DNA of 64,000 nucleotides from Candidatus Bathyarchaeota archaeon (GCA_963807605.1 CAWECG010000004.1:480001-544000), one strand, 5' to 3'. Positions 1 through 64,000 are shown, counted from the first letter of the stretch. Notes: a model not told the origin generated them from the letters alone. Numbers and translations are program-made.

Positions 1-1322
1 GGCTAAAGCCGTGGGCTTCCTGTTTCAATGACCGAACTTGCCTCCTCTCTTTTGCGGTAGAGGTATAGGTTCAATCTTCGCAGGCGTAGATTCGGGTGTG
101 TCCCACCCTAGTCGATTCAGAATATTTACTGCGGAATTCCAGTCTCTATCCTTCATGAGTTCACAGTTTGGACACAGGTGCATCCGCTCGGAAAGGTTCT
201 TCGGTACTGGAAATCCACATCTTGAACATTCTGTAGTTGTGTCACGTGATTCAGCAAATCTCACGTTCTTACCAGCGTATTCTGCTTTGTAAGAGGTGAA
301 GGTTTGTAGTTGATGCCATGAAGCGTCTGCTATTGATTTGGCAAGATGATGATTTCGTATCATGTTTCTTATTGATAGGCGTTCAAATGCTATTAGGTCG
401 AATCTATTCACGAGCGTATGGCTTAGCTTATGGTTGAAGTCTGTTCTCTGCAAGCGCACTTTGCGATGGACTCTCGCCACCTTGATGCGTTGTTTATCTT
501 GATTATTCGATTCTTTCTTCTTTCTTGATAGTCGGCGTTGCTCTCTCCTCAACCTTTTTTGCATCTTCCGTAGGTATTTTGGTGGCTCTATCTTCTCGCC
601 ATTGTTCAGGGTTATGAGAGATTTCAGACCGACATCAACGCCGACTGGGTTCTTTGGATGTCTCGTCTTTACTACTGTGAGAGGTATCTCCACTGGGAAG
701 CATGCATACCACCTGTCAACGTCTCTGCGGATGGTGCAAGTCTTCACTGTTCCTTCTATAGGTCTGTGTTGTACAATTCGTATCGCGCCTATTTTTGAGA
801 GAAACAACTTTCCAGTCGTTAGCTTGCATCCGTTCCCATATTGTGGGTATGTGAAACTGTCGTACTGGTTGCGTCCCTTGAAGCGGGGGTATCCGACCTT
901 GCCATTCCACTTGCCTTCTTTCTTCTTTCTTGCTCTATCAAAGAAAGCGTTGAAAGTCCTCTCTATGCGTAGAGCGACGTCTTGCAAGACTTGTGAGTGG
1001 ACATCTTGGAGATAGTGGCTGGTGTTTTTGGCGTTTACGAGTCCTCGTTTCTGCTCGTAGAAAGATGGTGATCTTCCGTCGTTTCCATATTTGTCTCTGC
1101 GTTCCGCAAGCATAAGGTTATAGAGGATTCGACAGGTGTTGAGTGTCTTTGCGAGTTTTTCCTCTTGGTCCCTGTTCGGATAGATGCGGTACTTGTAGGC
1201 TAGAAGCATCACAGCACCTCACAAACATATGTTGACCTAAAAATTTAAACATCTGGCGTCTCGCTCTGGAACGCAATTCATCCCACCGCTAAAGCATGTG
1301 GGGTTTCTTGCTCAAATCCTCT
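1..1322 (-). mobile_element. IS200/IS605-family TnpB-only element, family A copy 1 (right end runs off window start)
   Basis: Near-identical to 55207-56543 in inverted orientation. Shared sequence begins at TTAG (1323-1326, minus). Left-end hairpin CCCAC..GTGGG. No tnpA. Confidence 0.93.
25..1212 (-). CDS. tnpB: RNA-guided endonuclease TnpB (family A)
   Basis: AYKYRIYP N-terminus; RuvC motifs GVDVG, IAFERL, DRDWNSA; Zn ribbon CSRCG/CPNC. Confidence 0.96.
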   Translation of the reverse strand: MMLLAYKYRIYPNRDQEEKLAKTLNTCRILYNLMLAERRDKYGNDGRSPSFYEQKRGLVNAKNTSHYLQDVHSQVLQDVALRIERTFNAFFDRARKKKEGKWNGKVGYPRFKGRNQYDSFTYPQYGNGCKLTTGKLFLSKIGAIRIVQHRPIEGTVKTCTIRRDVDRWYACFPVEIPLTVVKTRHPKNPVGVDVGLKSLITLNNGEKIEPPKYLRKMQKRLRREQRRLSRKKKESNNQDKQRIKVARVHRKVRLQRTDFNHKLSHTLVNRFDLIAFERLSIRNMIRNHHLAKSIADASWHQLQTFTSYKAEYAGKNVRFAESRDTTTECSRCGFPVPKNLSERMHLCPNCELMKDRDWNSAVNILNRLGWDTPESTPAKIEPIPLPQKRGGKFGH

Positions 1323-1389
1323 CTAAGAATGCTATAATTGAGTAGGGTGTTCGCATCTCGCTTCACTGCAACATCTTGAAGGCTGAACG

Positions 1390-1818
1390 CTAAGGTTTGC
1401 CGATTCTCCAGACGATGTCACCGAGGATCTCGGTCAACCTAGGTTCGTTCCTGACGATATCGGTGGAGGTGACAATTCCAACTAGCTTCCTATCTCGCAC
1501 CACAGGCAACTTCTTGATGCGTCTATCAGCCATAATCTTAGCCGCTTCTTCAATGCTGACTTCCTCATTTATTGTTAAAAGGGGACTGGACATAATCTCC
1601 TTCGCCTTCATAGACTCACCTGCCAGATTCACCTCAAGAACTCGGCGGAGTATGTCTCTCTCGGTAATTATTCCCGTGGGCTTTTCTCCTTCAACAACCA
1701 CCAGTGAACCGATATCGAACTTGTTCATCTTACGAACTACTTCAGTGACCGTGGAGTTGGTCCTCACGGTCTTTACATTCTGACTCATTACATCTCTAAC
1801 GAGGATTACGCCTTCCAT
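1390..1818 (-). CDS. CBS-pair domain protein
   Basis: Two CBS repeats (VRDVMS..GIITERDI; KEIMS..GIVTSTDI). Confidence 0.93.
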   Translation of the reverse strand: MEGVILVRDVMSQNVKTVRTNSTVTEVVRKMNKFDIGSLVVVEGEKPTGIITERDILRRVLEVNLAGESMKAKEIMSSPLLTINEEVSIEEAAKIMADRRIKKLPVVRDRKLVGIVTSTDIVRNEPRLTEILGDIVWRIGKP

Positions 1819-2020
1819 GATTGTATGAAATAGGAACCAATCTCTTTATTCTTTTCCATTTGTGCCAAGTCCTAGATCGACAATATCTGACCCGCCCCGC
1901 ACCGCACCGTAAAAAAATGCATGCCTCAGCTCAGTTTATGCCGTGTCCGCACAGGAAAAAGATCATTCAGTGGTTCCGGCGCGTGCTGATGTCATGCTTC
2001 AATCTTGGAACATTTACAGA

Positions 2021-4349: not shown

Positions 4350-5674
<1,325 letters not shown>

Positions 5675-5732
5675 ATAAAAGACTGAAGGATCCACAATTT
5701 CAATGCATTCATGACAAGGAAGGATAGGAAAG

Positions 5733-11329: not shown

Positions 11330-13187
11330 CTAGCTATCGATTGCGCGTTTCATTCTACGTCGCTTAACAAGGATAGTCCCTATTGTCACCAAACAAACTA
11401 TTGCCACAACTTCGACAACAGTGACCTGTGAGCTTGGAGGATTCGATTGCGCCTGCCCTGTCTTTTCTGTCTCCGGACTTGTCAACGGAAGTCTCTTAAA
11501 GTAGCCTGGGTTAGACTTCAGCCTCCAGAATTCTCCGGGTTTCTGTTCGGTTAGCATAAACGGCCCTGTCCCAACCATCTTCGTGAGTTCAGGTTTGAGT
11601 GGATTGGGTTCCCTGTCAGGCTGGAAGGTCCGCCAATCAGATACGTTCTTCCAGATGTGCTCAGGTAAAATTAGGATCCCGCCTGCATCTATCAGATTAA
11701 AGATGCTGGTTCCATTCATTATAATCTCAACAGTGTAAGGCGTCGGGTTGGAGACCTCTATGATTCTCTCTACTGTAGAAAGGAAGCTGGGGATCTTATT
11801 CTTCTTAACATATTCTATGGAAAATCTTACGTCACTAGATGTGAACGGCTCACCGTCCTGCCACGTGGCATTATGTACTAGGTTGAAGGTTATCCTCTGG
11901 CTTTTCTTGCCACTAGTGTCTACTGATGTGATATTCCAGTTCTCAGCGAGATAGGGTACCGGGTCGCCGGTCCCCGGGTCTGATGCAAGCAAGGAGTCAT
12001 AGATGAGAGTGATTATCTTTTGTTCATAGGCGCCAGTTCCGTAAAGTGGATTTAGCGTCCTCACCCTTCCCCCAAGGTCGACTTTGATTGATCCTCCGCG
12101 TTCTACGCCTGATTTGTGGAGATTTAGATAGGTCCAGAACGACCCAGAGGTGAAGTACCCAATTCCCGTCTGCTGGATCATGCCTTCCCACCCCTTTCTG
12201 TAGGCTTCAATCTCGTATCGTGAGTAGACGGGAACTCTAGCTGCCAAGTCAGCAATGATCGCCTGCGCTTGCCAGATCGCCGAGTTAGCCGCATCCTCTG
12301 TCGCAGACTCGAACCTGAATTTGTATAGGAGGTTATCAAGCTCAGGGTCTCTCACTCCAGGCGTATTATCACCGTCTGGAACATCCAGGCTAGAATCATA
12401 ATAGTCGTAGAGCCACCTCGGGAATCTCCCCAGGTTGGATACGCAGAGAAAGTACATATCAAAATTTCTCTCGGTCATAACCCTCGTTTGTAGCGCGTCG
12501 AAGGCGACACCCTCCTGATATACGTCGAAACCGATTTTCTGCATTTCTTCAACGATTAACCTTGCTATCTCGTAAGAGGTAGGTGCCTCTTCCTGAGTTG
12601 GGGAGAGGAAACTGATCCTGCCCAAAGGCTGTCCGTCGGGGCTCAATAGTTTTCCATCTTTAGACCAGCTGTACCCTGCGGCGGAGAGAATCTCTTTCGA
12701 CTTCGACGGATCATAAGGGTAGATGTCAACATTCGGATTGTGCCATTTGCCAAACGCTGGCGAGGTCTCATACAACATCGGAGTCACAATTATTCCTTCG
12801 AAAAGGTTGTCAGAGATTTCCTCCCTTGGCACCAAACAGGCTATGGCTTTCCTCAGTTGCTTATCACTCAACGGTGCCTTCCTTGTGTTGAAACCGACAT
12901 AACAATAGTGGGTCTGAGAAGTGCAAGTTATGTTTATGTTAGGATCTGCTGAGATATTCCGCGACGTCAGACGGCCGGGCAATGTCTGACAGAACATCGG
13001 TGTCCCCTTTTCGGATAGCTGCGACAGACGCCTCAGGAGTACCCTGATAGACAAACACAATCTCATCCAGTCTAGGACCATTGATCGGATAACTTAACGG
13101 TGCCTCACCCTTAGAAGGTACAACAGCCACGTAGAGGCTTTGAGTTAACAGTAGAATCAGAAAACAACCCGGAAGAAACTTAGACAA
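11330..13187 (-). pseudogene. oppA: Peptide ABC substrate-binding protein (family 5), frameshifted at ~12960
   Basis: Signal peptide from TTG 13187 (RBS GAGGAGGG). DIARPSDVA joins NISADPN if one G is removed. C-terminal TM anchor. May be a sequencing indel. Confidence 0.85.
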
Positions 13188-13261
13188 CCGTGTTCCCTCC
13201 TCATTTTGATCAATTATTGAAAACGGTTTCTTATCACTATCTATGCCTATATGCGCTTTAC

Positions 13262-14629
13262 ATTGAACTAGCAAGAAAACCCACCCTTCAGGAGTGGGAT
13301 GAATTGCGACCAGAGTGAGACGTTTGGGGCTTAAATGTCTGGTGTTTCAATAATAATGCTGGTAGTTTCATGCGGAGAACTAACACCTTCATCCTTGATT
13401 CAACGGTGGAGCAAGAGAGGATACTGAGGGATAGAGCTACCAACTGTGCTAAATTTTGGAATGAGGCAACCTACCGCAAAAAACAGGCATACATGAACTA
13501 TCAACCGATAGACTGGGAGTGCAAAGACCTCTATCAAAAGTACACACCACTAATCGATTCAGCGACAACACAACAAATACTCCGGAAGAGCAATGAGTCT
13601 TGGAGGAGCTTCTTTGCCCTCAAGAAGATGGAGCAAGAAGGTAAACTACCTCCAAACATTGAGAAAGTATGTATGCCTGGATACTGGAAGCGAGATGGAA
13701 AATACAGGCTAATGATGGTTCTGAGAAAAGACTGCTACAGTGTAAAGGATGAAGTAATGAGACTGCCAAAGAAGTTGAAGATACCCATCCGAGGCAAGCC
13801 GAGATGGAGTGGGAAGCAGGGAAAGGCCGAGGTCATCTATGATGAGGTTGATGGGAAGTGGCGTGTCTTTCAGGCAGTTAAGGTTAGGCCATTATTCAAG
13901 CCGAAAGGCTCCAAGACATGCTACATCGACATCGGTATCATTAACCTGTTCACCATTTGGCTTGAAGGATGGAGGCAACCAATAGCATTCAGCGGGAGAA
14001 ACCTCCTAGCAGTTTGGTGGTACTGGGTCGATAGAATAGCAGAATGCCAGAGCAGACTTGAAACAGTAAACGGCAAGAAGAGTTCAAAGCACCTCAGTAG
14101 ACTGTACAGGGTGAGGCAGCGGAGATTCCGACAGGCCATCAACACCATGATAAGAGTCATGGTAAGAGACCTCTACGATCTCGGTGTTTCAAAGATTGTG
14201 ATAGGAGACCTAACAGGCATCAGAGACGGCAACGATAAAGGAAAGAAGAGCAACTCGATGATCCACAACTTCTGGAGCTTCAAATACACTGTTCAAAGGC
14301 TAAGGTGTACAGCACAGGAATATGGCATCCGAATCAAAGAGGTTAGTGAATACAAGACCTCAAGTAGATGCATAAGATGCAGCTCAGAGAACATTGAGAG
14401 AAAAGGCAGACTCTTCAAGTGTCTAGAATGTGGATTGGAAGCTCATAGAGATGCTATTGGCGTCTTGAACATGGCGAACCTCTACGGAGGAACAGCTATC
14501 AGGGTGATGACACACCCTAACCTTCTAAAGTGGGATGGAATGAGGTGGCAGCCTAGAAGGGCAGTGACCCACCAACCAATGAACATGATAGAAGCTAGAA
14601 TCCCCTGTCTTTAGGCAGGGGAGTGTCAA
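13262..14629 (+). mobile_element. TnpB-only IS200/IS605 element, family D copy 1
   Basis: Starts after TTAC (13258-13261). Ends GAAT-hairpin-AGTGTCAA. Homologous to 45103-46487 and 63301-64000. Confidence 0.93.
13370..14614 (+). CDS. tnpB: TnpB (family D, rearranged RuvC-II)
   Basis: YIDIG, IVIGDL, VSEYKTSS, CIRC/CLEC, HRDAIG. Confidence 0.94.
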   Translation: MRRTNTFILDSTVEQERILRDRATNCAKFWNEATYRKKQAYMNYQPIDWECKDLYQKYTPLIDSATTQQILRKSNESWRSFFALKKMEQEGKLPPNIEKVCMPGYWKRDGKYRLMMVLRKDCYSVKDEVMRLPKKLKIPIRGKPRWSGKQGKAEVIYDEVDGKWRVFQAVKVRPLFKPKGSKTCYIDIGIINLFTIWLEGWRQPIAFSGRNLLAVWWYWVDRIAECQSRLETVNGKKSSKHLSRLYRVRQRRFRQAINTMIRVMVRDLYDLGVSKIVIGDLTGIRDGNDKGKKSNSMIHNFWSFKYTVQRLRCTAQEYGIRIKEVSEYKTSSRCIRCSSENIERKGRLFKCLECGLEAHRDAIGVLNMANLYGGTAIRVMTHPNLLKWDGMRWQPRRAVTHQPMNMIEARIPCL

Positions 14630-14656
14630 AAGATCAAGATACAGAAGAAGACTAGG

Positions 14657-49826: not shown

Positions 49827-50792
49827 TCATTTCCAGATTGTCTTCATGAGCTTGAGTGTCTTGAGGAATCCTGTGTCTCTATCTATTGTGACGTCTTCAG
49901 GTTTGAATTTCGTGTAGTCGTAGAAGCCTTTCCTAGTTTTCATGCCAAGTTCACCTTTAGCAACCTTCTCAGTCATAGCCTTGGGGACCCTTTTTGAATT
50001 TGATAAGCTCGGCAGTATGTACTTCCAGACTTTACAGGAAGTATCTATGCCTGCTGAATCCATCTGGTGAAATGGTCCAACCGTTGCCCATCTTAGACCG
50101 AGAACACTGTTGAGGCAGATGTCGACATCCTCAATGGTAGCAACTCCTTTCTCAACAAGGTAGAAAGCCTCCCTTCCAAGAGCATGTTGAAGTCTATTGA
50201 GCAAGAATCCATCGATCTCTTTCTTAACCACGAAAGGTACTTTGCCGATCTTCTTAATCAAATCGTATGATATCCTGAAGGTCCTGTCTGAAGTCTTCCT
50301 TCCCCTAATTATCTCTACACCAGGGACAATGTGGGGAGGTACGGAGAAATGTGTTCCAATGACTCTATCAGGCCGTTTAAGTCCTTGAGCTATCTTGGTG
50401 ATCATTAGACCCGACGTGTTAGTTGCGAGTATCGCATTGTCAGAAGCGTATTTTTCTAACTGAGTGAAGACTTTTCTTTTCATTTTGAGATCTTCCGTTA
50501 CAGCTTCCGTGACGAAGTCACAGCCTTCAGCAGCGTCTTTGATGCTTGTTGCAGAAGATATCCTGTTCAGCGCTTCTTCAGATTCATTCTCAGTAACAAA
50601 CTCGTTATTGACCAGTGTTCTGAGTTCCGCTCTTATCTGCCTCATTCCCCTCTCTAAGAGCTCGTTGTTAACATCCATCATCGTAGTTGGGTAGCCGTTC
50701 AGAGCGTAAACCTCAGTTATTCCGTGACCCATAACTCCCGAGCCTATTACGGCCATTCTGTGAATCTCTTCAACTGAGTTCATTTGATTCAT
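49827..50792 (-). CDS. 3-hydroxyacyl-CoA dehydrogenase family
   Basis: GSGVMGHG, EAVTE, TNTS, THF, GFLLNRL. Confidence 0.92.
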   Translation of the reverse strand: MNQMNSVEEIHRMAVIGSGVMGHGITEVYALNGYPTTMMDVNNELLERGMRQIRAELRTLVNNEFVTENESEEALNRISSATSIKDAAEGCDFVTEAVTEDLKMKRKVFTQLEKYASDNAILATNTSGLMITKIAQGLKRPDRVIGTHFSVPPHIVPGVEIIRGRKTSDRTFRISYDLIKKIGKVPFVVKKEIDGFLLNRLQHALGREAFYLVEKGVATIEDVDICLNSVLGLRWATVGPFHQMDSAGIDTSCKVWKYILPSLSNSKRVPKAMTEKVAKGELGMKTRKGFYDYTKFKPEDVTIDRDTGFLKTLKLMKTIWK

Positions 50793-50950
50793 TCCTTAAA
50801 TTACGTCTATATCGTCCCATTACTAAATCTGTGTATGCGCCTAGATTATTACTGCTTATCGCACACCAACGTAAACGAGCGGTAGCATACGCTAGAAGAC
50901 GATTATGACGGGGCAAGAGCAGATGATACGTCAGGGGTAACGATCGCAGG

Positions 50951-51708
50951 CTACCTCATGCCTCTTCCGCCAGATACCGTAATGATTTCTCCTGTGATGA
51001 AGTCTGATTCCTGGGATGCCAGAAAGAGCGCCGCATATGCGATTTCATCAGGCTTGCCGTTTCTCTGAAGAGGTGCCTCTTCAATCGGTATCCTTCTCCT
51101 CTCTGGTGGCAGAGAGGCGGACATATCAGTCTCTATCAGACCCGGGCAGATGGCATTAACATTCAGATGGGGACCAAGGTTAACTGCAAGTGCCCGTGTC
51201 AGACCTATGACGCCCGCTTTTGAAGCTGCGTAGGGGACATTTCCAAGAGCTGATTTCTGAGGTAAACCCGAGACAGATGCTATGTTGATTATCTTGCCTC
51301 TTTTTTGGTTAAGCATTATAGGTGCAACTTCTTTGGCGCACAGGTAACTCCCCTTAAGATTTACGTCCATCATTCTATCCCACATCTCTTCTGTGGAGTC
51401 AAGAAAGGTCGCTGGAACTAGTATCCCCGCGTTGTTGACGAGGATGTCTATTCGGCCGAATTTTTCAATGGTTTTCTCAACCATCTTCTTGACTTGGTCT
51501 GCCTTGGAGACGTCGCCTTTAACAAGTAATGCTTCCCCCCATTCTTCCTGATCTCTTCCGCTAGGCTTGTGGCCTCTTTCTCGGATCTGCTGTAGTTAAT
51601 TACGACTTTGGCTCCTTCTTGAGCGAAGAGTCTTGCTGTCGCGCGGCCGATTCCACGGGCAGCACCAGTAACAATTGCAACCTTACCTGACAATCTTTTG
51701 TTTGACAT
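50951..51708 (-). pseudogene. SDR oxidoreductase frameshifted at a G6 (versus G7) run near 51535
   Basis: Paralog 35452-36201 has 7 C on + strand at the same place, this copy has 6. May be an assembly indel. Confidence 0.85.
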
Positions 51709-51771
51709 TTAATATCACATCAGATGGAGTCTAGAATTAGTGGATCCCTATAGCTTGAATGTATTGTCAAC

Positions 51772-52689
51772 TCAACTCTTAGACAGATATCGTTTTGGGC
51801 ATTTCAAAGCTGCTGTATACAACGGATTTGTTATCTGGCTGCATTCGATTTCTGCTACTGATGTCAACAGGAGATTAGCATCCCACATGTCAAGACCGTA
51901 GTCATCCTTTAGCCAAGATATCATCTCTGTCAAGGCAATCCTGATGGTATTCTCCAGCGGTTTGGAGCTTCCAATTGTTATCAAGTACTCATCTGATTCT
52001 ATGCGAGGCCACGAGATCTTCCAATTCTTGATTAGATTTATTGTTAGTTTTGTTTCGGTTGAAACCTCGATTGGTGCGCCTCCAAGTTCTCCGTGTCCTT
52101 GCAGAGCGTGGACATCACCAAGGAACAGTAGTCCTCCAGTGACAAAGACGGGGAAATACAGCTTATTCTTCGGTCGTACTTCTAGGCAATCCATGTTTCC
52201 CCCGTGAGGGCCTGGAACGTTGCTGGGCACTTCTACCTCTGGAGCCGTTCCTATCGTTCCGACCAAAGGTTTCACAGGCAGGATTATCTCTTTTCCATTC
52301 CTCAACGGGAAGTGTATCTTGTTCTCTGTGATCTTGCAGATTTTGATTATGGTTGGGATAGTTTCGGTAAACAAGTTCCAGATGGGGCTGCCCATCTCTA
52401 TGAATCCCCAATCTGAAGTCTGTCCGGTCCAGCCGTATCCTCTTAATATCTTTACGTCTTCTATGATGACTTCTAAGGCGTCTCCCTTCTCAGCATTTTC
52501 GACAAATATTGGTCCGGATAGCGGATTTAGAGGGGGGTGTATCTGGTCTCTGTCATTTACAGAATTGACTCTATTGCCCACATTGTCAAGGGTCTCGATC
52601 GTGACGGTCTCGCCTGATCTTATTCTTAGTTCCGGTTCTATGCTGGGGCTAATAGTGTGGTAGCGCTTTTTTTGTCTTAAGCACGTCAA
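51772..52689 (-). CDS. Acetamidase/formamidase family protein
   Basis: NPLSGPIFV, GPHGGNMD, LGDVHALQGHGE. Confidence 0.92.
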   Translation of the reverse strand: MTCLRQKKRYHTISPSIEPELRIRSGETVTIETLDNVGNRVNSVNDRDQIHPPLNPLSGPIFVENAEKGDALEVIIEDVKILRGYGWTGQTSDWGFIEMGSPIWNLFTETIPTIIKICKITENKIHFPLRNGKEIILPVKPLVGTIGTAPEVEVPSNVPGPHGGNMDCLEVRPKNKLYFPVFVTGGLLFLGDVHALQGHGELGGAPIEVSTETKLTINLIKNWKISWPRIESDEYLITIGSSKPLENTIRIALTEMISWLKDDYGLDMWDANLLLTSVAEIECSQITNPLYTAALKCPKRYLSKS

Positions 52690-52773
52690 AATACTTCACC
52701 ATAATGTTTCTATCTTTTAAATGCGCGATTATCCGAAAAGGCCCGGCGCAGCGACTTATTCAACAGCGGATCG

Positions 52774-54060
52774 TTAAAGCGATCTCTCCATAGCGGCCAA
52801 TATGGCATCCAGATCTTCTTTGCCGTGTGCTGCACAGATTCCGTTATGGAAGAGGAATCCGTCGTAGGTGTATACCCCATTTTCCAGGAGGTTTCTGTGG
52901 AATTGTTGAGATCGTGCCTTGTCGGATTTTGCGGCTAATCTATAATCTACAATCTCCTTGTCGGTGAAGTAGACGCAGAATTGTCCACCTAATCCTATCA
53001 GCTGAGCCGCGAGTTTGCGATCTGCTGCAATTTCTTGAAATCGCTTGGACAGGTACGCTGTGGACTCATTCATCTTCCTCTGGATGTCCCCGTTGCGTAT
53101 CTGATCTAGAGTGGCAACGCCGGCGGCTACGCAAACCTGGCTCCCATTATAAACCCCACCGTACATGACGCTTCCCCCTGGCGCGCATACCTCCATTATC
53201 TCCTTCTTGCCGGCAACAGCACTTATCGGGTATCCATTTGCCATAGCTTTTGCGAAGGTAGCGACATCGGGAGTCACCCCGTAGTACTCTTGTCCTCCAC
53301 CAGGAGCCAGTCTGAAACCTGTTATAACCTCATCAAAGACCAGAAGAATATCGTGTTTTTCTGTTATCTCACGAAGTTGTTTCAAATATCCTTCTTTCGG
53401 CATGACCGCGCCGCTGTTGAAGACAATCGGCTCGACAATTAGGGCAGCAACTTTCCTTCTGTTTTTCTTTATGGCTTTCTCTGCAACTTCTGCATTATTG
53501 AAAGGTATTACTATCGTGTTCTCTTTGGCATTCTCAGGAATGCCTCCAGTGTCGTAGATCTTGTTGGGAGAATCTTTGGGTCCTGCCTTCCTCAAATCTG
53601 GGTGCAGACTGACTATGACGGTGTCACTCCAACCGTGATAGCCCCCCTCCATCTTGATTATTTTGTCTTTCTTGGTGTAACCTCTGACAATCGTCAAAGC
53701 ATGTGCAACTGCTTCGGTTCCGGATAACGAGAACTTAACCATCTCAGCGCAAGGAACGATCTCATGCATTCTTTCAGCTAATCTGTTACTGGTCTCGCTT
53801 TCGACGCCGCAAGTGAGACCCGATTCAAGTTCCTTTCTCACAGCGTCGGTAACAATGGGGTCTCCATGACCTAGGATTAGAGCCCCATAATTCACTACGC
53901 AGTCAATGTAAGCGTTCCCGTCTATATCGAAAAGCTTGGAACCCTGGCCTCTCTCAAATACATATGGAAATGGTTCCACGAATCTTATGTTTGAATGAAT
54001 GCCACCTGGAACGATTTTGCTCGCTCGATCGTACAGCTCTTTCGTTTTCGGCCTATCCAT
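52774..54060 (-). CDS. Class III PLP aminotransferase (GSA-aminomutase-like)
   Basis: DIDGNAYID, SGTEA, GGYHG, FDEVITGFR, FAKAMANG. Confidence 0.92.
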   Translation of the reverse strand: MDRPKTKELYDRASKIVPGGIHSNIRFVEPFPYVFERGQGSKLFDIDGNAYIDCVVNYGALILGHGDPIVTDAVRKELESGLTCGVESETSNRLAERMHEIVPCAEMVKFSLSGTEAVAHALTIVRGYTKKDKIIKMEGGYHGWSDTVIVSLHPDLRKAGPKDSPNKIYDTGGIPENAKENTIVIPFNNAEVAEKAIKKNRRKVAALIVEPIVFNSGAVMPKEGYLKQLREITEKHDILLVFDEVITGFRLAPGGGQEYYGVTPDVATFAKAMANGYPISAVAGKKEIMEVCAPGGSVMYGGVYNGSQVCVAAGVATLDQIRNGDIQRKMNESTAYLSKRFQEIAADRKLAAQLIGLGGQFCVYFTDKEIVDYRLAAKSDKARSQQFHRNLLENGVYTYDGFLFHNGICAAHGKEDLDAILAAMERSL

Positions 54061-54159
54061 GATAATTCACAATTTTTATGTCGTAAGAACGGCACATATT
54101 TAAGACTTGACCGTACGAAGCTCATGTCAAGCCCATCATTTCACCGAGGAGATAGGAGA

Positions 54160-54924
54160 ATGCCCGCAAACCGATTTGGTCTAGAAGGAAAGGTGGCCAT
54201 CGTTACTGGGAGCGGTCGAGGGATCGGGAAAGCCATCGCACTTGGGTTAGCGGAAGGTGGGGCTGACGTTGTGGTTTGCTCTCGCACGCAACCGCAAATA
54301 GAACGTGTGGCGCAAGAGATCCGAAGCCTAGGGCGAAAGGCCTTGCCAATAGTTGTTGATCTGACGAAAATGTCAGATTTGGAGCGACTGGTGGAGGAGA
54401 CACTAAGAAGCTTCCAGCACATCGACGTACTTGTCAACAATGCGGGTTATGCTAATCTAGCTCCGGCTGAGCAGGTGCAGGAGCGGGACTGGGATTGTGG
54501 GATGACTGTGAATGTCAAGGCTCCTTTCTTCCTTTCTCAGAAAGTTGGAAGGATAATGATCCGACAGGGAAAAGGTGGCAGTATCATAAATATCACCTCT
54601 GAGGTCGTTGAGAAAGTAGAGCTGAACGTTGGCTCTTATTGCCCCAGCAAGGCAGCTCTAAACAGTGTAACCAAGGTTCTAGCCAAAGAATGGGGCAAAC
54701 ACAAGATCAGGGTAAACTCCCTAGCCCCCTGTTTTGTTGACACGGAGCTCAATGCGCCGTTCTTCGCACAGAAGGAATGGTACAAATCAAAATTAAGTCT
54801 TGTTCCTCTGGGCCGTCATAGTGTTCCAGAGGATCTGGTAGGAGCAGCCATCTTCTTAGCCTCGGATGCTTCCAGCTATATTACAGGGACAACTCTACTG
54901 GTAGACGGAGGACTTACTGCCTAG
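54160..54924 (+). CDS. SDR oxidoreductase (KduD/gluconate 5-dehydrogenase-like)
   Basis: TGSGRGIG, NNAG, YCPSK. ATG 54160 after GGAG. Confidence 0.92.
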   Translation: MPANRFGLEGKVAIVTGSGRGIGKAIALGLAEGGADVVVCSRTQPQIERVAQEIRSLGRKALPIVVDLTKMSDLERLVEETLRSFQHIDVLVNNAGYANLAPAEQVQERDWDCGMTVNVKAPFFLSQKVGRIMIRQGKGGSIINITSEVVEKVELNVGSYCPSKAALNSVTKVLAKEWGKHKIRVNSLAPCFVDTELNAPFFAQKEWYKSKLSLVPLGRHSVPEDLVGAAIFLASDASSYITGTTLLVDGGLTA

Positions 54925-55277
54925 CGCTCTGGTATTCTCCGGCACGGATCTCCATATTACCTGATTCGCCTAGGATTTGAGCAAGTTCATATTTTCTCCG
55001 CATCCTTTTGGCAGCCCATCCTCCCCCTCGTATTGACATATCGTTTCCAGCCAGAATCCTGAAGCAGCCAGTCTCGGCGCTACAATCTGAGCAGATTTCA
55101 GGTGGAGATTAACCTGTTTCTTTGGCTGCTTTGTTAACCTTCGATAGTATTCTCAGATTCCGGGATGAATCGAATAGAGTCCCATCTCATCGTTGAACTT
55201 AATTAGAGAGGATTTGAGCAAGAAACCCCACATGCTTTAGCGGTGGGATGAATTGCGTTCCAGAGCGAGACGCCAGA

Positions 55278-55290
55278 TGTTTAAATTTTT
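55278..55290 (+). promoter_or_regulatory. Putative archaeal TATA box of tnpB
   Basis: TTTAAATT ~35 nt upstream of the start, conserved in the A and B left ends. Confidence 0.5.
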
Positions 55291-55316
55291 AGGTCAACAT
55301 ATGTTTGTGAGGTGCT

Positions 55317-56504
55317 GTGATGCTTCTAGCCTACAAGTACCGCATCTATCCGAACAGGGACCAAGAGGAAAAACTCGCAAAGACACTCAACACCTGTCGA
55401 ATCCTCTATAACCTTATGCTTGCGGAACGCAGAGACAAATATGGAAACGACGGAAGATCACCATCTTTCTACGAGCAGAAACGAGGACTCGTAAACGCCA
55501 AAAACACCAGCCACTATCTCCAAGATGTCCACTCACAAGTCTTGCAAGACGTCGCTCTACGCATAGACAGGACTTTCAACGCTTTCTTTGATAGAGCAAG
55601 AAAGAAGAAAGAAGGCAAGTGGAATGGCAAGGTCGGATACCCCCGCTTCAAGGGACGCAACCAGTACGACAGTTTCACATACCCACAATACGGGAACGGA
55701 TGCAAGCTAACTACTGGAAAGTTGTTTCTCTCAAAGATAGGCTCGATACGAATTGTACAACACAGACCTATAGAAGGAACAGTGAAGACTTGCACCATCC
55801 GCAGAGACGTCGACAGGTGGTATGCATGCTTCCCAGCGGAGATACATGTCACAGTACTGGAGACGAGGCATCCAAAGAACCCAGTCGGCGTTGATGTCGG
55901 TCTGAAATCATTCATAACCCTGAACAATGGCGAGAAGATAGAGCCACCAAAATACCTACGGAAGATGCAAAAAAGGTTGAGGAGAGAGCAACGCCGACTA
56001 TCAAGAAAGAAGAAAGGATCGAATAATCAAGATAAACAACGCATCAAGGTGGCGAGAGTCCATCGCAAAGTGCGCTTGCAGAGAACAGACTTCAACCATA
56101 AGCTAAGCCATACGCTCGTGAATAGATTCGACCTAATAGCATTTGAACGCCTATCAATAAGAAACATGATACGAAATCATCATCTTGCCAAATCAATAGC
56201 AGACGCTTCATGGCATCAACTACAAACCTTCACCTCTTACAAAGCAGAATACGCTGGTAAGAACGTGAGATTTGCTGAATCACGTGACACAACTACAGAA
56301 TGTTCAAGATGTGGATTTCCAGTACCGAAGAACCTTTCCGAGCGGATGCACCTGTGTCCAAACTGTGAACTCATGAAGGATAGAGACTGGAATTCCGCAG
56401 TAAATATTCTGAATCGAGTAGGGTGGGACACACCCGAATCTACGCCTGCGAAGATTGAACCTATACCTCTACCGCAAAAGAGAGGAGGCAAGTTCGGTCG
56501 ATGA
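55317..56504 (+). CDS. tnpB: TnpB (family A), intact
   Basis: Near-identical to 25-1212. Confidence 0.96.
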   Translation: MMLLAYKYRIYPNRDQEEKLAKTLNTCRILYNLMLAERRDKYGNDGRSPSFYEQKRGLVNAKNTSHYLQDVHSQVLQDVALRIDRTFNAFFDRARKKKEGKWNGKVGYPRFKGRNQYDSFTYPQYGNGCKLTTGKLFLSKIGSIRIVQHRPIEGTVKTCTIRRDVDRWYACFPAEIHVTVLETRHPKNPVGVDVGLKSFITLNNGEKIEPPKYLRKMQKRLRREQRRLSRKKKGSNNQDKQRIKVARVHRKVRLQRTDFNHKLSHTLVNRFDLIAFERLSIRNMIRNHHLAKSIADASWHQLQTFTSYKAEYAGKNVRFAESRDTTTECSRCGFPVPKNLSERMHLCPNCELMKDRDWNSAVNILNRVGWDTPESTPAKIEPIPLPQKRGGKFGR

Positions 56505-56560
56505 AACAGGAAGCCCACAGCTTTAGCCGTGGGAGGATGTCACATTCTTATCTACCAACG
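56380..56560 (+). ncRNA. Predicted omegaRNA/reRNA (5' boundary approximate); equivalents expected at every right end
   Basis: Known TnpB architecture: scaffold overlaps the tnpB 3' end and right end, guide is the flank after TCAC (ATTCTTATCTACCAACG). Confidence 0.55.
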
Positions 56561-57024
56561 AATCAATAATCTCCTCTCTTCTCTTTCCAAGAAGACGCGC
56601 GCGCCAAACTGGGGGATACAGCCTTCGGCTACCCACGAGAAAGTCAGCACAGCCATAAGAGATGACTTGTTTTTCTCCACACGCTCTGCAGTTTTGGCGC
56701 TAAGGCAAAGAACACCATTTGATAATCTCCGCAGATCAGCGAGAGCTAGGAAACACCAGAGCCCGTAACCCTCCGAGCTGTTCTGATTTGTCATCGGAAT
56801 CATATAAGGCCAGACAGGAAGAACCCTTGCTTGAGAGTGGCTTCGCTTGCGGTAACAGTTCACTTAGCTGACGGATGATCAGGCGAGGAATAAAATGTCG
56901 ACAAACGTTGAAGCCGATAAGTCAGTCATGAAGATAAATGTTCTCGTAATCTGATGGGCTTCACGCTGTCTAGCGCGCCTATGTTACGACCTTCGCCTAA
57001 TGATCGGCAGTACATCGATACTTT

Positions 57025-58239
57025 TTACATAGGGTATGGTGCCCAGAGAAATTGATGCCAAAGAACAAGGCAATGAATGTAAAAGAGGAAGAGTATTAGA
57101 ATTAATACGAGTATGTTCTTTATCTTGACATTCAACCATATTGGAAAAATAAAGGATGTATAACGAATTATACCATTAGTGTACCCGAATAGTATGATAA
57201 GCATGAACATGGCTATTGAGTAGACTGCGAGTTTCCAATCGATTTTGTAAGAGCTTATGGCGAAATATCCGATCAAGACTATGAAGGCTAAGGCGTATGC
57301 ATGGAAGTAGTGAAAGAAACTTATAGGTCTGGCCGATGTGAAAATTGGAACTATAAAGTCTCTGAACCAATAGTTGCCGAAGTTTATGCGTGAAACTTGC
57401 CATGTCGCCGTATTCAGCTCCAGAACAAGTCGATTCGCTAGGCCCTTCTGGATAAAGGAAAGCATTACTGCAAACAAAATGAATACAGGTATCGATGTAA
57501 GGAGGGCATCTTTCCATTTCCTACGGATGAGATTATCTAACAAAATGGGCAAGACTATTAGAACTCCATAGGTTTTGCTTAGTACAGCAAGTAAAGAGCA
57601 GAGACTTGAAAGGAGCGCTTTGTCTTTTAGATGGAAGTATCAGGAGGTCAATACAGCAAAGAGAAAAAGAGACTCAGAATATGCTACCGTTGTAAATAAG
57701 AAAATGTAAGGGAAGAATGACATGACAATTGTGCTTCCTAGGGCCTCACCTTTTGTCATATAACATTCAGCGATAGCTTGGAAGATCGGCAGCGAAACAA
57801 AACCAAGAATTACGGAGATCAAGAAGGCTGAAAGCCAAAAGTTGCCCGAAGCGTATCCAAAGACTCTGATTAGAAATGGGTAGCCGGGAAAGAATGTTCG
57901 ATCCAGTGAGAATGATAAACTCTGAGCCATACTAACATACCAAGACGTATCCCAAGCCATGAAAAGGTACAGCCACCGAGGCTCTATCGGGCCCCATATA
58001 TTCATCCACGGCGTTCCGAAGATGCCGTCCTGAAGCGACTTATTATATGTCCAGATGCTACCAAGAATCTTGAAGACGCCCACCAAGATGACGGGAACAG
58101 CAAAGCGCACCCTGCTTCTCATGAGGAGTCCTGAGATGCGCGGGAGAATATGCCTATCAAAACGCAACATGGACAAGGCAGATCTCCATACCTGACCCAG
58201 CTGTACAGAGTACGTCAGCAACCAGACCAGTCCCCTCAT
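57025..58239 (-). pseudogene. PIG-V-like GT-C mannosyltransferase interrupted by an in-frame TGA (57640-57642)
   Basis: AWDTSWY, FFPGYP, AYSESLFL. The two ORFs share a frame with 29 open codons between them. Confidence 0.8.
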
Positions 58240-58490
58240 CAGCGTAGAGCTACTTATCTCTTCCCTTAGTTGATTGAGCTGAGAATTTGTCGGTTACCTG
58301 TCTGAGTTGTAGCAACAATAGATTCAGGTTTACCCTTCATCGCCCGCGTCACGGACGCGCGTGCTATGGCAGAGTTTCAAGAACTCGATTGAATACACTC
58401 AATGTTGGGAATGTCGATATCTCAATATGACTATGGATAATAAGGCTAAATAACGCTGCCTCACCACCAATAATAATAGCCGGCTTCAGT

Positions 58491-59885
58491 TTGGTCAAAA
58501 CATTTCGGAGTGTCGGCACACAATTAGACAACGAACAGTACAACAAGCTGATCCAACTCATTATTATTATTTTCATGGCGTTCTTGCTGCGTTTTCTACT
58601 CGCTACGTCTGCGGCACTTGACTATGACGAGGCATTTACGTATGCGCCAGCGGCTCAATCATACTTGAGCGGAATTTGGACGGCAAACATTGGACACCCC
58701 ATGGTAATGAAGCTCCTCTTTGCCGGCAGCACCGTGCTTTTTGGCGCCAACGGAAAAATTGTGTTCCTGTTCCCGTGGTTACCTGAGAATATTGGCGCAA
58801 TTCGTCTCGTCTCCGTGATAATGGGCACGCTGACAGTTCTAATCGTCTACTTTCTAGCTAGAGATCTGGGCTGTACGCATACGGGTGCAATCATTCCATG
58901 CATTGTACTGGCCTTCGACCCGATCTCAATTGCAGAATCATCGTATGGTCTGTTGGACCCCGGAATGACTTTCTTCTATATGTGTTCGGTGCTCTTCTTC
59001 CTTCGATATATCAAAGGAGGGAAGACGATACATTTCTACCTAAGTGCAGTCCTGTTTGCGTTGTCAATCGCAAGTAAGTATTATGCGTTCATCGGCATTT
59101 TCGTGCTGCTAGGAATTCTGCTTTATAAGAGGAGACTTCAATCGGAATGGAAGTCAATGGCGGTTTATTTCTGGATCGTTGTGTTCGTGGTTTTTGCGGT
59201 TCAGCCTTATCTGTGGTCAAGCCCACTTGTCCATCTCTCACAGGTTTGGATATACAACAGAATCCATCTTACAGTTGGTCATCCAGTCAAGGTTCCTGGA
59301 AATCCATTCTTAATCCCCAGACAACAATTATCGGGGTTGCCTTGGCCGCACGTCGACTCAAACCCACTCTCTTCGAAACCTGACTTCTATGCGGACCCAT
59401 CGCAGGCTGTTCAAAGCCCGTGGTGGTACATGGTCTACATCCAAGCGATGTACAGCACACCATTCGAGATTCTCGTCTATCCGCTTGCCCTGTACAAGAT
59501 TGGCATATCAATCATCAAACGCCGAGTAACCGATCTGATTGCGATAGGAACACTATTGACCTCAGTCCCACTTCTTTACTTCGCTCTGCAAACCGTTAGA
59601 CTCCCTCAATACGGCATTCTCATGAGCACTTCATCCGTAATCCTGACCTCGATAGTTTTTCTTCATCTTAACAGAGGACGCCAACGGTATTTCCTAGTCT
59701 CGCTGACGTTCCTCCAGGTAATCTGGACCCTTATCTTCTTCCTGACTTCTGCTAATCGCTTCACTGGATGGGAGTTCTACTATACCCCACTTACACCGGT
59801 GCTCGCTCACCTCTTTCATTTGTTGTACACGCGGAGTGCTTCTTCTCTTCTTATGGTCTCTTTCAAAAACGCCCTAACTCTGTAG
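58491..59885 (+). CDS. GT-C glycosyltransferase (PMT/ArnT-like)
   Basis: YDEAFTY, GHPMVMK, RLVS, ASKY; polytopic. Confidence 0.85.
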   Translation: MVKTFRSVGTQLDNEQYNKLIQLIIIIFMAFLLRFLLATSAALDYDEAFTYAPAAQSYLSGIWTANIGHPMVMKLLFAGSTVLFGANGKIVFLFPWLPENIGAIRLVSVIMGTLTVLIVYFLARDLGCTHTGAIIPCIVLAFDPISIAESSYGLLDPGMTFFYMCSVLFFLRYIKGGKTIHFYLSAVLFALSIASKYYAFIGIFVLLGILLYKRRLQSEWKSMAVYFWIVVFVVFAVQPYLWSSPLVHLSQVWIYNRIHLTVGHPVKVPGNPFLIPRQQLSGLPWPHVDSNPLSSKPDFYADPSQAVQSPWWYMVYIQAMYSTPFEILVYPLALYKIGISIIKRRVTDLIAIGTLLTSVPLLYFALQTVRLPQYGILMSTSSVILTSIVFLHLNRGRQRYFLVSLTFLQVIWTLIFFLTSANRFTGWEFYYTPLTPVLAHLFHLLYTRSASSLLMVSFKNALTL

Positions 59886-59960
59886 GCAGTACCACAGATG
59901 CCCTTAATTGGTATAGCGCGCTCGCGCTAGAGGCCTTCACATAGGCGCTAACACGATAAT

Positions 59961-60884
59961 CTATTTGAAGATCATAAACACGGGATGATTACTGGTCAGT
60001 GGCTTTATCCCGAATTCTTGCCTCATGCTGTATGAGACGTAGGCGTCCGCTAGGGCGCATGCGGGATATATTTCAGCAGCTCTTTTTGCAGGACCGTATA
60101 GTAGGAAATTGGCGCCCATCACTATTGGGGTTACGTGAGCTACTGCATTGTTGATCCTGTAAGCTAAGGGGTCTTGCTTCTTTCTGGAGACCCATCGGTC
60201 CACTGCGTTGTGGACCCCCGCTCCTGATGGGAGACCGAACTCCTTTTTCACCGTGTAGCAAGCTTTAGCGACGGGCCCCGGATCAGGAATATCAAGGACT
60301 GTTGTGTCGACCAGCATCTTCTGGACTCCGGCCTCTGACGCGACACTGATCAAGCCCTTTCTTTCTGGTGAGTCTCTGAGCGTTGATAGTTTGCCAGCGA
60401 TCGTCATGTTCCTAGAATTGTAAGTCAGTAGAATAGATGCCGTTATCTTGGCGTCCTTAATAGCATCCAGCTCTTCAGGTTTAGCCTCTGGACTTATTGA
60501 GTTGAATACTGCTCTGTCTGAGAGGCCGATCTCACCCACGTGTTTCGTAGCTGTGGCTCTGACTGCTGCAGTGGTGCCGTCTACCAAGAATGGTCCTTCA
60601 ATCTTCTCTGAAACGAAATCTATGAACTTCGCGATGGCCTTCGGCCAAGCTCCACAAACATCGACTATTCTAGGATTTCCAGTCTTCTGCGACATCTCTG
60701 CTTCGGCTCGGAGTATCTCCTCGGCCTTAACCTTGTCGAAGGTTCCTTCCTCCTCATTATTGATGATTTTGTCGCCATGGTAGAATATGCTGCCGATCAT
60801 TACTGTAGGAAGCTGACCAGGTTGTCCTCCGATCTTCACGCCACCAATGTCAAAGATCTTTTGTTCTTTTTCAAATTTGAACAT
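59961..60884 (-). CDS. mtrH: Tetrahydromethanopterin S-methyltransferase subunit H family
   Basis: MFKFEKEQ..GGQPGQLPTV.IGSIFY, TGNP, G..HNA, GANFLLYGP. Confidence 0.9.
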   Translation of the reverse strand: MFKFEKEQKIFDIGGVKIGGQPGQLPTVMIGSIFYHGDKIINNEEEGTFDKVKAEEILRAEAEMSQKTGNPRIVDVCGAWPKAIAKFIDFVSEKIEGPFLVDGTTAAVRATATKHVGEIGLSDRAVFNSISPEAKPEELDAIKDAKITASILLTYNSRNMTIAGKLSTLRDSPERKGLISVASEAGVQKMLVDTTVLDIPDPGPVAKACYTVKKEFGLPSGAGVHNAVDRWVSRKKQDPLAYRINNAVAHVTPIVMGANFLLYGPAKRAAEIYPACALADAYVSYSMRQEFGIKPLTSNHPVFMIFK

Positions 60885-61065
60885 GTATCTCACGTTCTTT
60901 AATGCGTCGCAGCAGATTGCTCGTAAGGGGGTGTACGTTGATATACAAATCTATTAAAACTATTTGTAGCATCCGAATGCGGGGTGCTCTTCTGACCATG
61001 CGTTTTCACCTCTATAGACAGAAATAATATATCCAAAGCTGGGTTGTAGAATCTGGGTAAAGAGT

Positions 61066-61947
61066 ATGAATAATATTGACATAGTCTCAGACTTGATTCG
61101 AGACTCGATTGACGTTCACATGCATACGGCGCCAGACGTGCACCCTAGAAGTGTAGATGATGTCGAGGCAGCAATGCAGGCAAAGCAAGCGGGCATGAAG
61201 GCAATTCTGATAAAGTGTCACCACACCAACACCTCTGACAGAGCCCAGATCGCTAGCAAAGTCTCAGGCTTTCCTGTGTTTGGAGCAGTCACTTTGAATC
61301 ATGCGGTTGGAGGCCTGAATCCGGATGCTGTCTTGGCTGCGATAGAGATGGGGGCAAAAGAGGTGTGGATGCCAACGATCAATTCTGTCCCCTTCCTGAA
61401 ACGCGCTGATTCCGTGCCCGCGCTTGCAAAAGCGATCCCTGAAGGGACAAAGGGAATAAGCCTCATCGATGAGAAGGGAAGGCTGGTTCCGGAACTCTAC
61501 CGGATTATTGAGCTGGTGGCGAAACACAAAATAGCCCTTGGGACTGGTCACGTCTCACCAGAAGAGGCCAAAGTACTGGTAGACGAGGCTAGAAGGGCCG
61601 GGGTTGAGCGTATTCTTCTGACACACCCTACCATAGACTTCCTGGATTACTCTAAGGAAGCAATGAAAGAATTTGCGAAGTTGAGCGTACTTATTGAACA
61701 CGACTACGTAATCTGCACAAAGCAGGTCAGAGACTCTGTTCCGCCCAGCCGGCTGGCGGATGCAATAAAGTACGTCGGGGCTGAGAACTGCATAATGGCT
61801 ACTGATGGCGGCCAGAAGATCAACCCGCCACCGGTGGAAATGTTCAGGCAATTCATCTCAGACATGCTGGAGAATGGAATAAAGAAGGAAGAAATCAGAT
61901 TAATGATCTCTGACAACCCAGCAAGAGTTTTGGGACTGAAAACCTAA
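61066..61947 (+). CDS. DUF6282-like amidohydrolase-fold metalloprotein
   Basis: DVHMHTAPD, IKCH, VWMPT, TGH, THP, TDGGQ, NPAR. Confidence 0.85.
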   Translation: MNNIDIVSDLIRDSIDVHMHTAPDVHPRSVDDVEAAMQAKQAGMKAILIKCHHTNTSDRAQIASKVSGFPVFGAVTLNHAVGGLNPDAVLAAIEMGAKEVWMPTINSVPFLKRADSVPALAKAIPEGTKGISLIDEKGRLVPELYRIIELVAKHKIALGTGHVSPEEAKVLVDEARRAGVERILLTHPTIDFLDYSKEAMKEFAKLSVLIEHDYVICTKQVRDSVPPSRLADAIKYVGAENCIMATDGGQKINPPPVEMFRQFISDMLENGIKKEEIRLMISDNPARVLGLKT

Positions 61948-62000
61948 GTCGTGCATTGCTTGCCCATACTCTGAACCGTTGATTGCTAAGAGGTGGATTC

Positions 62001-63293
62001 ATGACGCAGGTATCAATTCCATATGGCGAAGACAGGCTCAAGCTTGGGGTAGAAGACAAGCATCTAGTTACAGTTGCAGCACCGAGGCAAACCCGGCCTA
62101 TTAGCGATCTCGACACGGCTGTGATGCAGGCTCTTGAGAGGCCTCTCAGAAGTCCGAGCTTCAAGAGTCTTCTTGGTCCAGACAAAAAGGTTGCGTTGCT
62201 AATAGACAACTTTGCACGGCCGACACCAGAACATTCGATTCTACCGCCAATTTTGAAGGCAATCCGAGATGCCCGGGCTGAACCTTCAATAATTGTCGCA
62301 AATGGTGGACTAAGAGCCACCACAGATGATGAGCTTGAGGTAAAGCTTGGAAAGGAGATTCTCAAAAGTGGAATTCCAGTGATCCAAAGCGTCGCGAAGC
62401 GCAAGGAGGATTTTGTGTTTCTCGGTGTTACAAGTTACGGAACACCTGTGGAGGTCAACAGAGCATTTCTCAACGCAGATGTCAGGTTAGGCATACACAC
62501 GACACAGATGACTTTGTGGGGGTATGGTGGCGGGGGCTCAATCGTCCTGCCTGGAGTCTCTTCATTCCAGACCATAGAGTGGAATCATCGCTTGGCTATC
62601 TCTCCAAGATCGATAGAGCCAGGATACGTTGGGGAAGAGAATCATATGAGAAACGATATCGAAGAGGCTGCGAAGCTCGCTCGAATTGACATAGTCCTTA
62701 ATGCGGTCCTCGATGTTGATGGCAATGTTGTCGATATGGCGGCCGGAGCCTCTCGCGAGTCACATATGGCCTCCATAGAAAAATTTGATGAAATATACTC
62801 CTACCCGGTAAACTGGTCAGACAAGGTGGATATTTCGATAAGCGGGTCCTTAAGCTGGGATAAGTACCTGGCGCATTCCTGCTGGCCCATCTCAACATTG
62901 GATCCCGTGACTAAGGATGGTGGGACAATAATCTTGGCGACGCCTAGCCCGGGAGGCTTGGCGCATTTCTCCTACATACGGGATTATCTTCCTGCCACGG
63001 AAGAGAGTTGGCGAAGACTCCTAGGCGATATCTTCAATGGTAAACAGGAGCTCTGGCATGCTATACTCTGGTACCCGATCCACTGCGTCCTCCAGAAAAA
63101 GAAGGTCATAGTCGTAACTGGAAAAGATAACGTCAAATCACTAAACGATATGGGGATCGAGTCGACAATCTCGATTGATGAAGCTTACGATCTTGCGCTT
63201 GGTAGGAGCCCGAGAGACGCCAAAGTTCTAGTCGCTCCTTACGGCAAATGGATGAAGCCAAAGCGTCTAGGGTCGAAGAACTCTTCTAGGTAG
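62001..63293 (+). CDS. LarA (lactate racemase) superfamily protein, divergent
   Basis: ALERPL, D..RPTP, LGVTSYGTPVEVN, LPGV, NH, MRNDIEEAA. Confidence 0.85.
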   Translation: MTQVSIPYGEDRLKLGVEDKHLVTVAAPRQTRPISDLDTAVMQALERPLRSPSFKSLLGPDKKVALLIDNFARPTPEHSILPPILKAIRDARAEPSIIVANGGLRATTDDELEVKLGKEILKSGIPVIQSVAKRKEDFVFLGVTSYGTPVEVNRAFLNADVRLGIHTTQMTLWGYGGGGSIVLPGVSSFQTIEWNHRLAISPRSIEPGYVGEENHMRNDIEEAAKLARIDIVLNAVLDVDGNVVDMAAGASRESHMASIEKFDEIYSYPVNWSDKVDISISGSLSWDKYLAHSCWPISTLDPVTKDGGTIILATPSPGGLAHFSYIRDYLPATEESWRRLLGDIFNGKQELWHAILWYPIHCVLQKKKVIVVTGKDNVKSLNDMGIESTISIDEAYDLALGRSPRDAKVLVAPYGKWMKPKRLGSKNSSR

Positions 63294-63300
63294 CGTGTGC

Positions 63301-64000
63301 TTGACACTCCCCTGCCTAAAGACAGGGGATTCTAGCTTCTATCATGTTCATCGGTTGATGGGTCATAGCGTTGTCGCGCTCCCACCTCATTCCATCCCAC
63401 TTTAGAAGGTTAGGGCGTGTCATCGCCCTGTTAATGACTCCCGCAGGGAGCTTAACCCCCTGAGTGAGTCCTATATTTACAACACCAGTAGCATCCCTAT
63501 TTGCTTCTAGTCCACAGTTAAGGCATTTGAAGAGTCTACCTTTCCTCTCAATATTTTCTGACCCACATCTCACGCATTTGCTTGAAGTCTTGTATTCGCT
63601 GACTTCTTTCACTCTTATGCCGTATTCTTGTGCCGTACACTTTAGTCTTTGAATGGTGTTTTTGAAGCTCCAGAAATTATGGATCATCGAGTTGCTCTTC
63701 TTGCCTTTGCTATTGTCCTCTCTAATGCCTCTCAGATCCCCTATCACAATCCTTGAGAACTCCCAGTTCGTAGAGGTCTCTTACCATGCTTCTTATCATG
63801 GTGTTGATGGCCTGTCGGAATCTCCGCTGCCTCACCCTGTACAGTCTACTGAGGTTCTTTGAACTCTTCTTGCCGTTGATTGTCTCAAGCATGCCCTGGC
63901 AATCCGCTATTCTCCTATTCCAGTACCACCAATCAGAGAGTAGATTTCTCCCACTGTATGCTATTGGTTGCCTCCATCCTTCAAGCCAAATGGTGAACAG
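63301..64000 (-). mobile_element. tnpB: TnpB-only element, family D copy 3 (partial; tnpB frameshifted near 63757)
   Basis: Right end TCAA at 63301-63304; homologous to D1 and D2; runs off the window. Confidence 0.92.

Follow-up and report, generated by a model that had tools for sequence, protein, structure and literature searches.

How can one archaeal genome hold four families of transposable elements, each of which inserts after a different tetranucleotide of the form TTAN? This question is raised by a 64,000-nucleotide (nt) stretch of a Candidatus Bathyarchaeota genome (G000:C4:480001-544000, hereafter the window), which contains nine copies of the nuclease gene tnpB belonging to four families (A-D) and one 48-nt mini-element. 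The parent assembly consists of 2.65 Mb in five contigs (47% GC, 94% complete). Most named close homologues of one of its housekeeping permeases come from Ca. Bathyarchaeia, in keeping with a probable bathyarchaeal host. An earlier analysis of the window from its bare sequence (the sequence-only reading) had claimed that the variable fourth base of a short guide at the left end of each family is complementary to the fourth base of its target; in IS608, guide base 4 reportedly pairs with target base 4. Our results make it highly probable that A-D are independently acquired, non-autonomous IS200/IS605 elements (IS1341-type, tnpB only) whose targets are set by guide pairing and whose transposase, TnpA, is supplied in trans.

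Guides and targets covary in the four families

Searches with tblastn revealed 39 tnpB loci across the assembly, 36 of which retain both ends (A 2, B 9, C 9 and D 16), with element lengths of 1324-1386 nt. In the window, each guide tetranucleotide forms the 5' foot of a hairpin and lies 13-16 nt after the target. On the element strand, the left guides AAAC (A), AAAA (B), AAAT (C) and AAAG (D) were found exactly where the sequence-only reading had placed them, and the corresponding targets TTAG, TTAT, TTAA and TTAC were read at the window coordinates (Table 1). The right-end words are GAAG with TCAC in A, B and C and GAAT with TCAA in D, again as claimed. The exception already recorded for one D copy, a guide of AAAA (D1), is also present; the hairpin of this copy is one base short, most likely because of decay after insertion. 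The descriptions of the copies held as to coordinates but not in three other respects: the tnpB genes of B1, C1 and D3 are broken, which leaves only six of the nine at full length, the left end of D3, just outside the window, follows CTAC, and the mini-element is a single fused hairpin, that is, a core deletion product resembling a palindrome-associated transposable element (PATE).

The flanks are family-specific genome-wide as well, with TTAG at both A copies, TTAT at seven B copies (TTAC and TTAG at one each), TTAA at eight C copies (one imperfect) and TTAC at 15 D copies (CTAC at one). Guide and target are complementary at base 4 in 34 of the 36 elements, and about a dozen single-hairpin mini-elements keep to the same targets. 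The anatomy is that of the IS200/IS605 (IS1341-type) elements: subterminal hairpins are present at both ends, terminal inverted repeats are absent, and insertion takes place 3' of a fixed tetranucleotide that is retained in the empty site (10/10 empty alleles), with no target duplication at three clean sites. The tnpB gene is the only gene and runs into the right end; its products contain PF01385 and PF07282 and score above the NF040570 cut-off in A-D. The two bases after the hairpin are AT at left ends and AG at the right ends of A, B and D, which fits known base triplets. Membership of IS607 was not indicated, as A-D have hairpin ends and the one resolvase gene of the assembly (C4:618 kb) lies beside a different tnpB; this serine resolvase and the adjoining tnpB (G000:C4:616.8-618.5 kb) form a probable IS607-type element.

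A mechanism modelled on IS608 would account for these data. The ends would fold as single-stranded hairpins and be bound by a Y1 TnpA supplied in trans, and the bases at the hairpin foot would select the cleavage tetranucleotide, with guide base 1 pairing with target base 2, guide 2 with target 1 and guide 4 with target 4. Because AAA is common to the four guides and only base 4 varies, the families would insert after TTAG, TTAT, TTAA or TTAC. TnpB with an omegaRNA from the right end most likely cuts the empty site, its transposon-associated motif (TAM) being equal to the insertion motif, and thus restores the element.

A fifth class was also observed, comprising three IscB-related elements with guide GAAA and target TCAT (C4:566.7 kb, C4:629.4 kb and C3:1150.8 kb; L316 and L317). 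AG follows the hairpin in two of the three, matching the triplet rule for a guide that begins with G.

Generality of the rule and known precedents

Is the covariation peculiar to this genome? A motif scan of public genomes and metagenomes yielded 224 distinct left ends with AAAN guides, 181 of which had a single upstream TTAN. The rule was obeyed by 171 of these 181 (guide/target A/T 23, C/G 7, G/C 32 and T/A 109), and it is therefore family-wide, across bacteria and archaea. After collapsing to end types, 102 of 110 obeyed, whereas 100,000 permutations gave 39.7 on average and never more than 61. The covariation is not due to chance.

The rule is the already known IS608 mechanism, and the present set is an unusually complete example of a published phenomenon. 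Passages of the IS608 structural papers describe pairing of A+16 with T-3 and of A+17 with T-4, triplets with the two bases after the hairpin, and predictable retargeting when the guide is changed (PMC5934647, PMC3201880). IS608 of Helicobacter pylori resembles family D in its left guide (AAAG), target (TTAC), right guide (GAAT), terminal TCAA and the bases after the left (AT) and right (AG) hairpins; unlike A-D, it is autonomous, with tnpA plus tnpB, and A-C differ from it at guide base 4 and end in TCAC.

The closest parallel to co-residence is offered by ISGst1-5 of Geobacillus stearothermophilus, five co-resident families in which guide and target covary and one TnpA excises all (Meers 2023, 10.1101/2023.03.14.532601). 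As here, these are TnpB or IscB families, mostly without tnpA, with similar ends, clade-specific motifs and PATE mini-elements. Their TAMs equal the flanking motifs (TTTAT for TnpB2, TTCAT for IscB), and a guide swap was demonstrated (10.1101/2023.03.14.532601). The present set differs in its archaeal host, in covering all four bases at position 4, in motifs read as 4-mers, in having only broken local tnpA copies, in the rearranged RuvC-II of D and in being known from sequence alone. Passages on the IS1341-type elements and PATEs of Haloquadratum walsbyi (PMC3119063) report 29 IS605-type families, many of them co-resident and tnpB-only, one strain with only tnpA pseudogenes, and terminal-only mini-elements of ~50 bp arising by deletion between two palindromes; in contrast to our analysis, these passages do not map guide bases onto targets. 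The set provides a tidy natural demonstration of a known rule: a single archaeal genome displays every value that one guide base can take.

TnpB proteins and predicted TAMs

The TnpBs of A, B, C and D are only 17-41% identical in pairwise comparisons, and the nearest relatives of each are found in other genomes, so the families look like independent arrivals. All possess a RuvC triad and a C4 zinc finger, with the canonical D-E-D in A, B and C and a rearranged RuvC-II in D. A matches ISDra2 TnpB (PDB 8H1J) at E 7e-57, and A-C are typical TnpBs. In D, glycine occupies the position of the RuvC-II glutamate, and an alternative glutamate downstream, before the zinc finger, aligns with Fanzor2 L79 (PDB 9B0L). 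Such a rearrangement has been described for clade RIIr-5 (Altae-Tran et al. 2023, PMC10691335), to which D is assigned by motif rather than by tree placement.

Full-length tnpB genes are carried genome-wide by 2/2 A, 4/9 B, 7/9 C and 11/16 D copies; an intact B gene is located at G000:C4:586440-587633. A +1 frameshift near codon 85 is common to five of the nine B copies, including that in the window, and may have come about through gene conversion or because a lineage with a dead nuclease has spread. It does not look like an artefact of long reads at GATC: in 56.7 kb (overlapping loci counted twice), 2-3 of 37 single-base indel calls touch any of 296 GATC sites, and no systematic error was seen.

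Which partner reads the fourth target base once the element has left? In a set of 47 TnpB-like proteins whose ends could be read, the target base was the same in 151/151 pairs with an identity of 50% or more, although these pairs are related and not independent; below 50% identity, the agreement was ~35%. Since one guide mutation would be enough to retarget an element, such constancy suggests that the protein itself may read target base 4. For an archaeal TnpB whose TAM is TTTAA, changes are tolerated at some positions, but the target-adjacent base is sensitive (PMC11043419). The TAMs predicted by the sequence-only reading, TTAG, TTAT, TTAA and TTAC for A-D, are plausible predictions. The omegaRNA at the right end is likewise predicted; an Rfam search of the window gave no match. 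The four compact nucleases (394-422 amino acids) would have predictable, different TAM-adjacent bases, include the rare TTAG class and an enzyme with a rearranged RuvC, and form a ready panel for studying how TAM recognition by the protein stays matched to a guide that is read as DNA.

In other Bathyarchaeia (L081 and L250), left ends of A type (TTAG/AAAC) are followed by a nuclease-like protein that is very distant and sits on a long branch, which suggests that ends move between cargo genes.

Source of the transposase

Since A-D contain no tnpA in cis, as the sequence-only reading had supposed, a central question is where their transposase comes from. A search of the assembly for Y1 tnpA revealed one family in four copies and no second Y1 family. 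The most likely donor would be the tnpA-only element represented by these four remnants, whose intact homologues in relatives (~88% identical) are tnpA-only elements that insert after TTAG and have similar hairpins. Intact natural homologues of TnpA include P0133 and the copy at G012:C74:2538-3008. If Geobacillus, in which five families are excised by a single TnpA, is taken as a model, a shared donor is likely, and it is plausible that one TnpA mobilises A-D. Three points weigh against this explanation. All four local tnpA copies are broken: that at C5:72 kb has a frameshift immediately ahead of the catalytic tyrosine, that at C4:558 kb is without both HUH histidines, and two others are truncated. 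The left end of the tnpA element itself has a 9-nt spacer and a different stem. Finally, another transposase could be missing from the assembly, given its completeness.

Alternatively, each family may have had a transposase of its own, lost or never resident, in which case the families would have expanded before their arrival or been mobilised by different TnpAs. We regard this as unlikely, if worth serious attention: the lack of an intact tnpA in the assembly would fit it, as would the limited cross-reactivity of TnpA (GstTnpA is inactive on IS608) and the presence in relatives of a second Y1 family, 65% identical, but hairpin and spacer architecture are very similar in all four families, A and B have end and 5' sequence in common, chimeric ends occur (B', see below), and the remnants here come from one Y1 family only.

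Dead tnpA remnants were observed fused to B-type ends at G000:C4:557.0-558.9 kb and C5:72.2-73.0 kb; the B copy at C4:557 kb was originally at TTAT, as judged from L333. Left ends of the tnpA element, in mini or partial form and in each case preceded by TTAG, are located at C5:37.2 kb, C5:73.6 kb and C1:372.9 kb.

Use of the available targets

Do the four families divide the target space among themselves? The sequence-only reading had described an orthogonal set of non-autonomous elements that partitions it. The non-autonomous state and the family-specific flanks are borne out; the partition is not, as targets are far from limiting and target classes are shared. A selected set, avoiding competition or cross-cleavage, appears improbable. 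In its favour, all four bases are present, each family being faithful to its own, TTAG is the rarest class in public data (7/181), and no other among 150 genomes searched in the class showed more than two target classes, though most of those assemblies are fragmented and lose repeats. Against it, there are 12,768-18,612 sites per motif for a few dozen insertions in all, so that <0.2% of the target sites are used, and non-overlapping use beyond chance under a limiting supply was not found. The tnpA element shares TTAG with A, two or more subtypes of D ends use TTAC, as does the end donated to B', a fifth class uses TCAT, and ends have been swapped between families. In Tengunoibacter, several co-resident families are all TTAT-only. 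Moreover, the chance that 4-6 families drawn from the observed frequencies cover all four bases is 0.02-0.19, before allowing for the many windows scanned. We favour the reading that the four bases occur together as a by-product of a heavy element load.

Empty alleles and the origin of base 4

To which side of the boundary does base 4 belong? Ten empty sites were obtained from orthologous contigs (85-97% identical), mostly of one orthologous sample, and from contigs of public runs; relatives in GTDB, ~70% identical, were too distant to yield any, and none were obtained from L335-L337. The family base was at the predicted place in all ten. Three sites are clean (C2, a C copy at C4:560 kb and D2). 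At C2, comparison with L013 displayed a clean insertion with the four host bases kept. At D2, contigs of three runs from one study (X1, X3 and X4) break off precisely after the C of TTAC (45102) and resume on the opposite strand at 63300, with 0 shared letters. Base 4 thus belongs to host DNA and not to the element. Aligned copies within one genome cannot fix the boundary, which for C lies in an A run, but the idea that all families insert after TTA and that the element opens with base 4, the covariation being element-internal, can hardly be maintained. It is refuted by the empty alleles, every one of which has the family base at the joint or immediately ahead of the right flank, and by a joint that falls exactly after the C.

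Restoration of a reading frame across the joined flanks was tried as a further indicator and proved uninformative; its sole apparent success (D2) is coincidental, because the true empty allele joins the D2 left flank to the D3 right flank.

Replacement of host DNA between cognate motifs

At six of the ten sites, the element does not simply interrupt the empty allele but takes the place of 86-802 nt of host DNA bounded by two cognate motifs. The loss amounts to 86-116 nt in four of the six; a seventh site is complex. The replaced segments are 311 nt at A1 (TTAG/ATAG; orthologue L315), 86 nt at B1 (TTAT/CTAT; L011 and L315), 100 nt at D1 (TTAC/TTAC; L011), 114 nt at a C copy (TGAA/TTAA), 116 nt at a B mini-element (TTAT/TTAT) and 802 nt at B' (C4:553.7 kb; TTAC/TTAT). 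Loci outside the window are at G000:C4:553.7, 560.5 and 563.5 kb, and the orthologues used for these replacements were L011, L315 and L333. By chance, an exact motif match is expected at ~0.3% of positions and a 3-of-4 match that includes base 4 at ~4%. Loss in this genome is the likelier direction, because some of the missing DNA is coding in the orthologue.

The copy B', which carries TTAC and AAAG on a B body, was considered as a naturally retargeted B and rejected, as the orthologue has TTAT before the right flank and 802 nt are missing; B' is a chimera.

The symmetrical product implies two nearby insertions resolved into one. In the model that we prefer, the element makes a local hop on single-stranded DNA at the replication fork, where the lagging-strand template is the target of IS608 (PMC5027513); recombination would then follow, perhaps set off when TnpB cuts the vacated site. 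Replacements might also be generated by plain recombination between neighbouring copies or by an exchange that TnpA mediates with a target lying upstream, and B', which needs two different elements, favours recombination. It is conceivable, although we hold it only tentatively, that the usual mode of spread is a short local hop after which TnpB would cut the vacated site and repair would proceed from the sister copy, the final copy replacing 0.1-0.8 kb. If so, TnpB elements would routinely give rise to small deletions, whose sequence signature could be recognised by comparing any two genomes. A literature search on flanking deletions by IS605 elements returned nothing relevant, which is weak evidence of absence. 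The replacements may reveal an undescribed outcome of cut-and-copy repair, and they matter in practice because the rejoined flanks often differ from the ancestral site.

Features of the window and distribution of tnpB loci

The elements of the window are listed in Table 1. The joint between 45102 and 63300 indicates a 17-kb inversion between D2 and D3 relative to the strains in runs X1, X3 and X4.

Table 1 Coordinates, targets and left guides of the elements in the window
Feature	Position	Strand	Target	Left guide	Remarks
Family A copy 1 (A1)	1-1322	-	TTAG 1323-1326	AAAC 1303-1306	1337 nt; ends 14 nt before the window
A1 tnpB	25-1212	-			full length
Family B copy (B1)	4350-5674	-	TTAT 5675-5678	AAAA 5657-5660	tnpB with +1 frameshift near codon 85
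Family D copy 1 (D1)	13262-14629	+	TTAC 13258-13261	AAAA 13276-13279	tnpB 13370-14614
B mini-element	20200-20247	-	TTAT 20248-20251		48 nt; 5' part of left end, one fused hairpin, right-end tail
Family C copy 1 (C1)	20297-21641	-	TTAA 21642-21645	AAAT 21624-21627	tnpB frameshifted near codon 190
Family C copy 2 (C2)	23564-24905	-	TTAA 24906-24909		tnpB 23570-24817, full length
Family C copy 3 (C3)	27580-28925	-	TTAA 28926-28929	AAAT 28908-28911	tnpB 27586-28836, full length
Family D copy 2 (D2)	45103-46487	+	TTAC 45099-45102	AAAG 45117-45120	tnpB 45212-46480, rearranged RuvC-II; left breakpoint of putative inversion, contig joint 45102 to 63300
~17-kb segment, putatively inverted	46488-63300				probable recombination between inverted copies D2 and D3
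Family A copy 2 (A2)	55207-56543	+	TTAG 55203-55206	AAAC 55223-55226	tnpB 55317-56504, full length, canonical D-E-D RuvC
Family D copy 3 (D3)	63301-64000, runs to 64685 beyond the window	-	CTAC		tnpB broken; variant left end; right breakpoint of putative inversion

A 5-kb segment with A2 (54925-59954) is absent from the same three runs, which have 57 other letters in its place. Across the assembly, 27 of the 39 tnpB loci are clustered in ~240 kb of C4 (G000:C4:480-720 kb), 22 of them on the minus strand, a bias that would fit lagging-strand targeting; several others lie near the ends of C1, C3 and C5, perhaps forming one element-rich chromosomal zone. The window also contains two paralogous short-chain dehydrogenase genes (35453-36198 and 50952-51696), which are 75-94% alike in parts.

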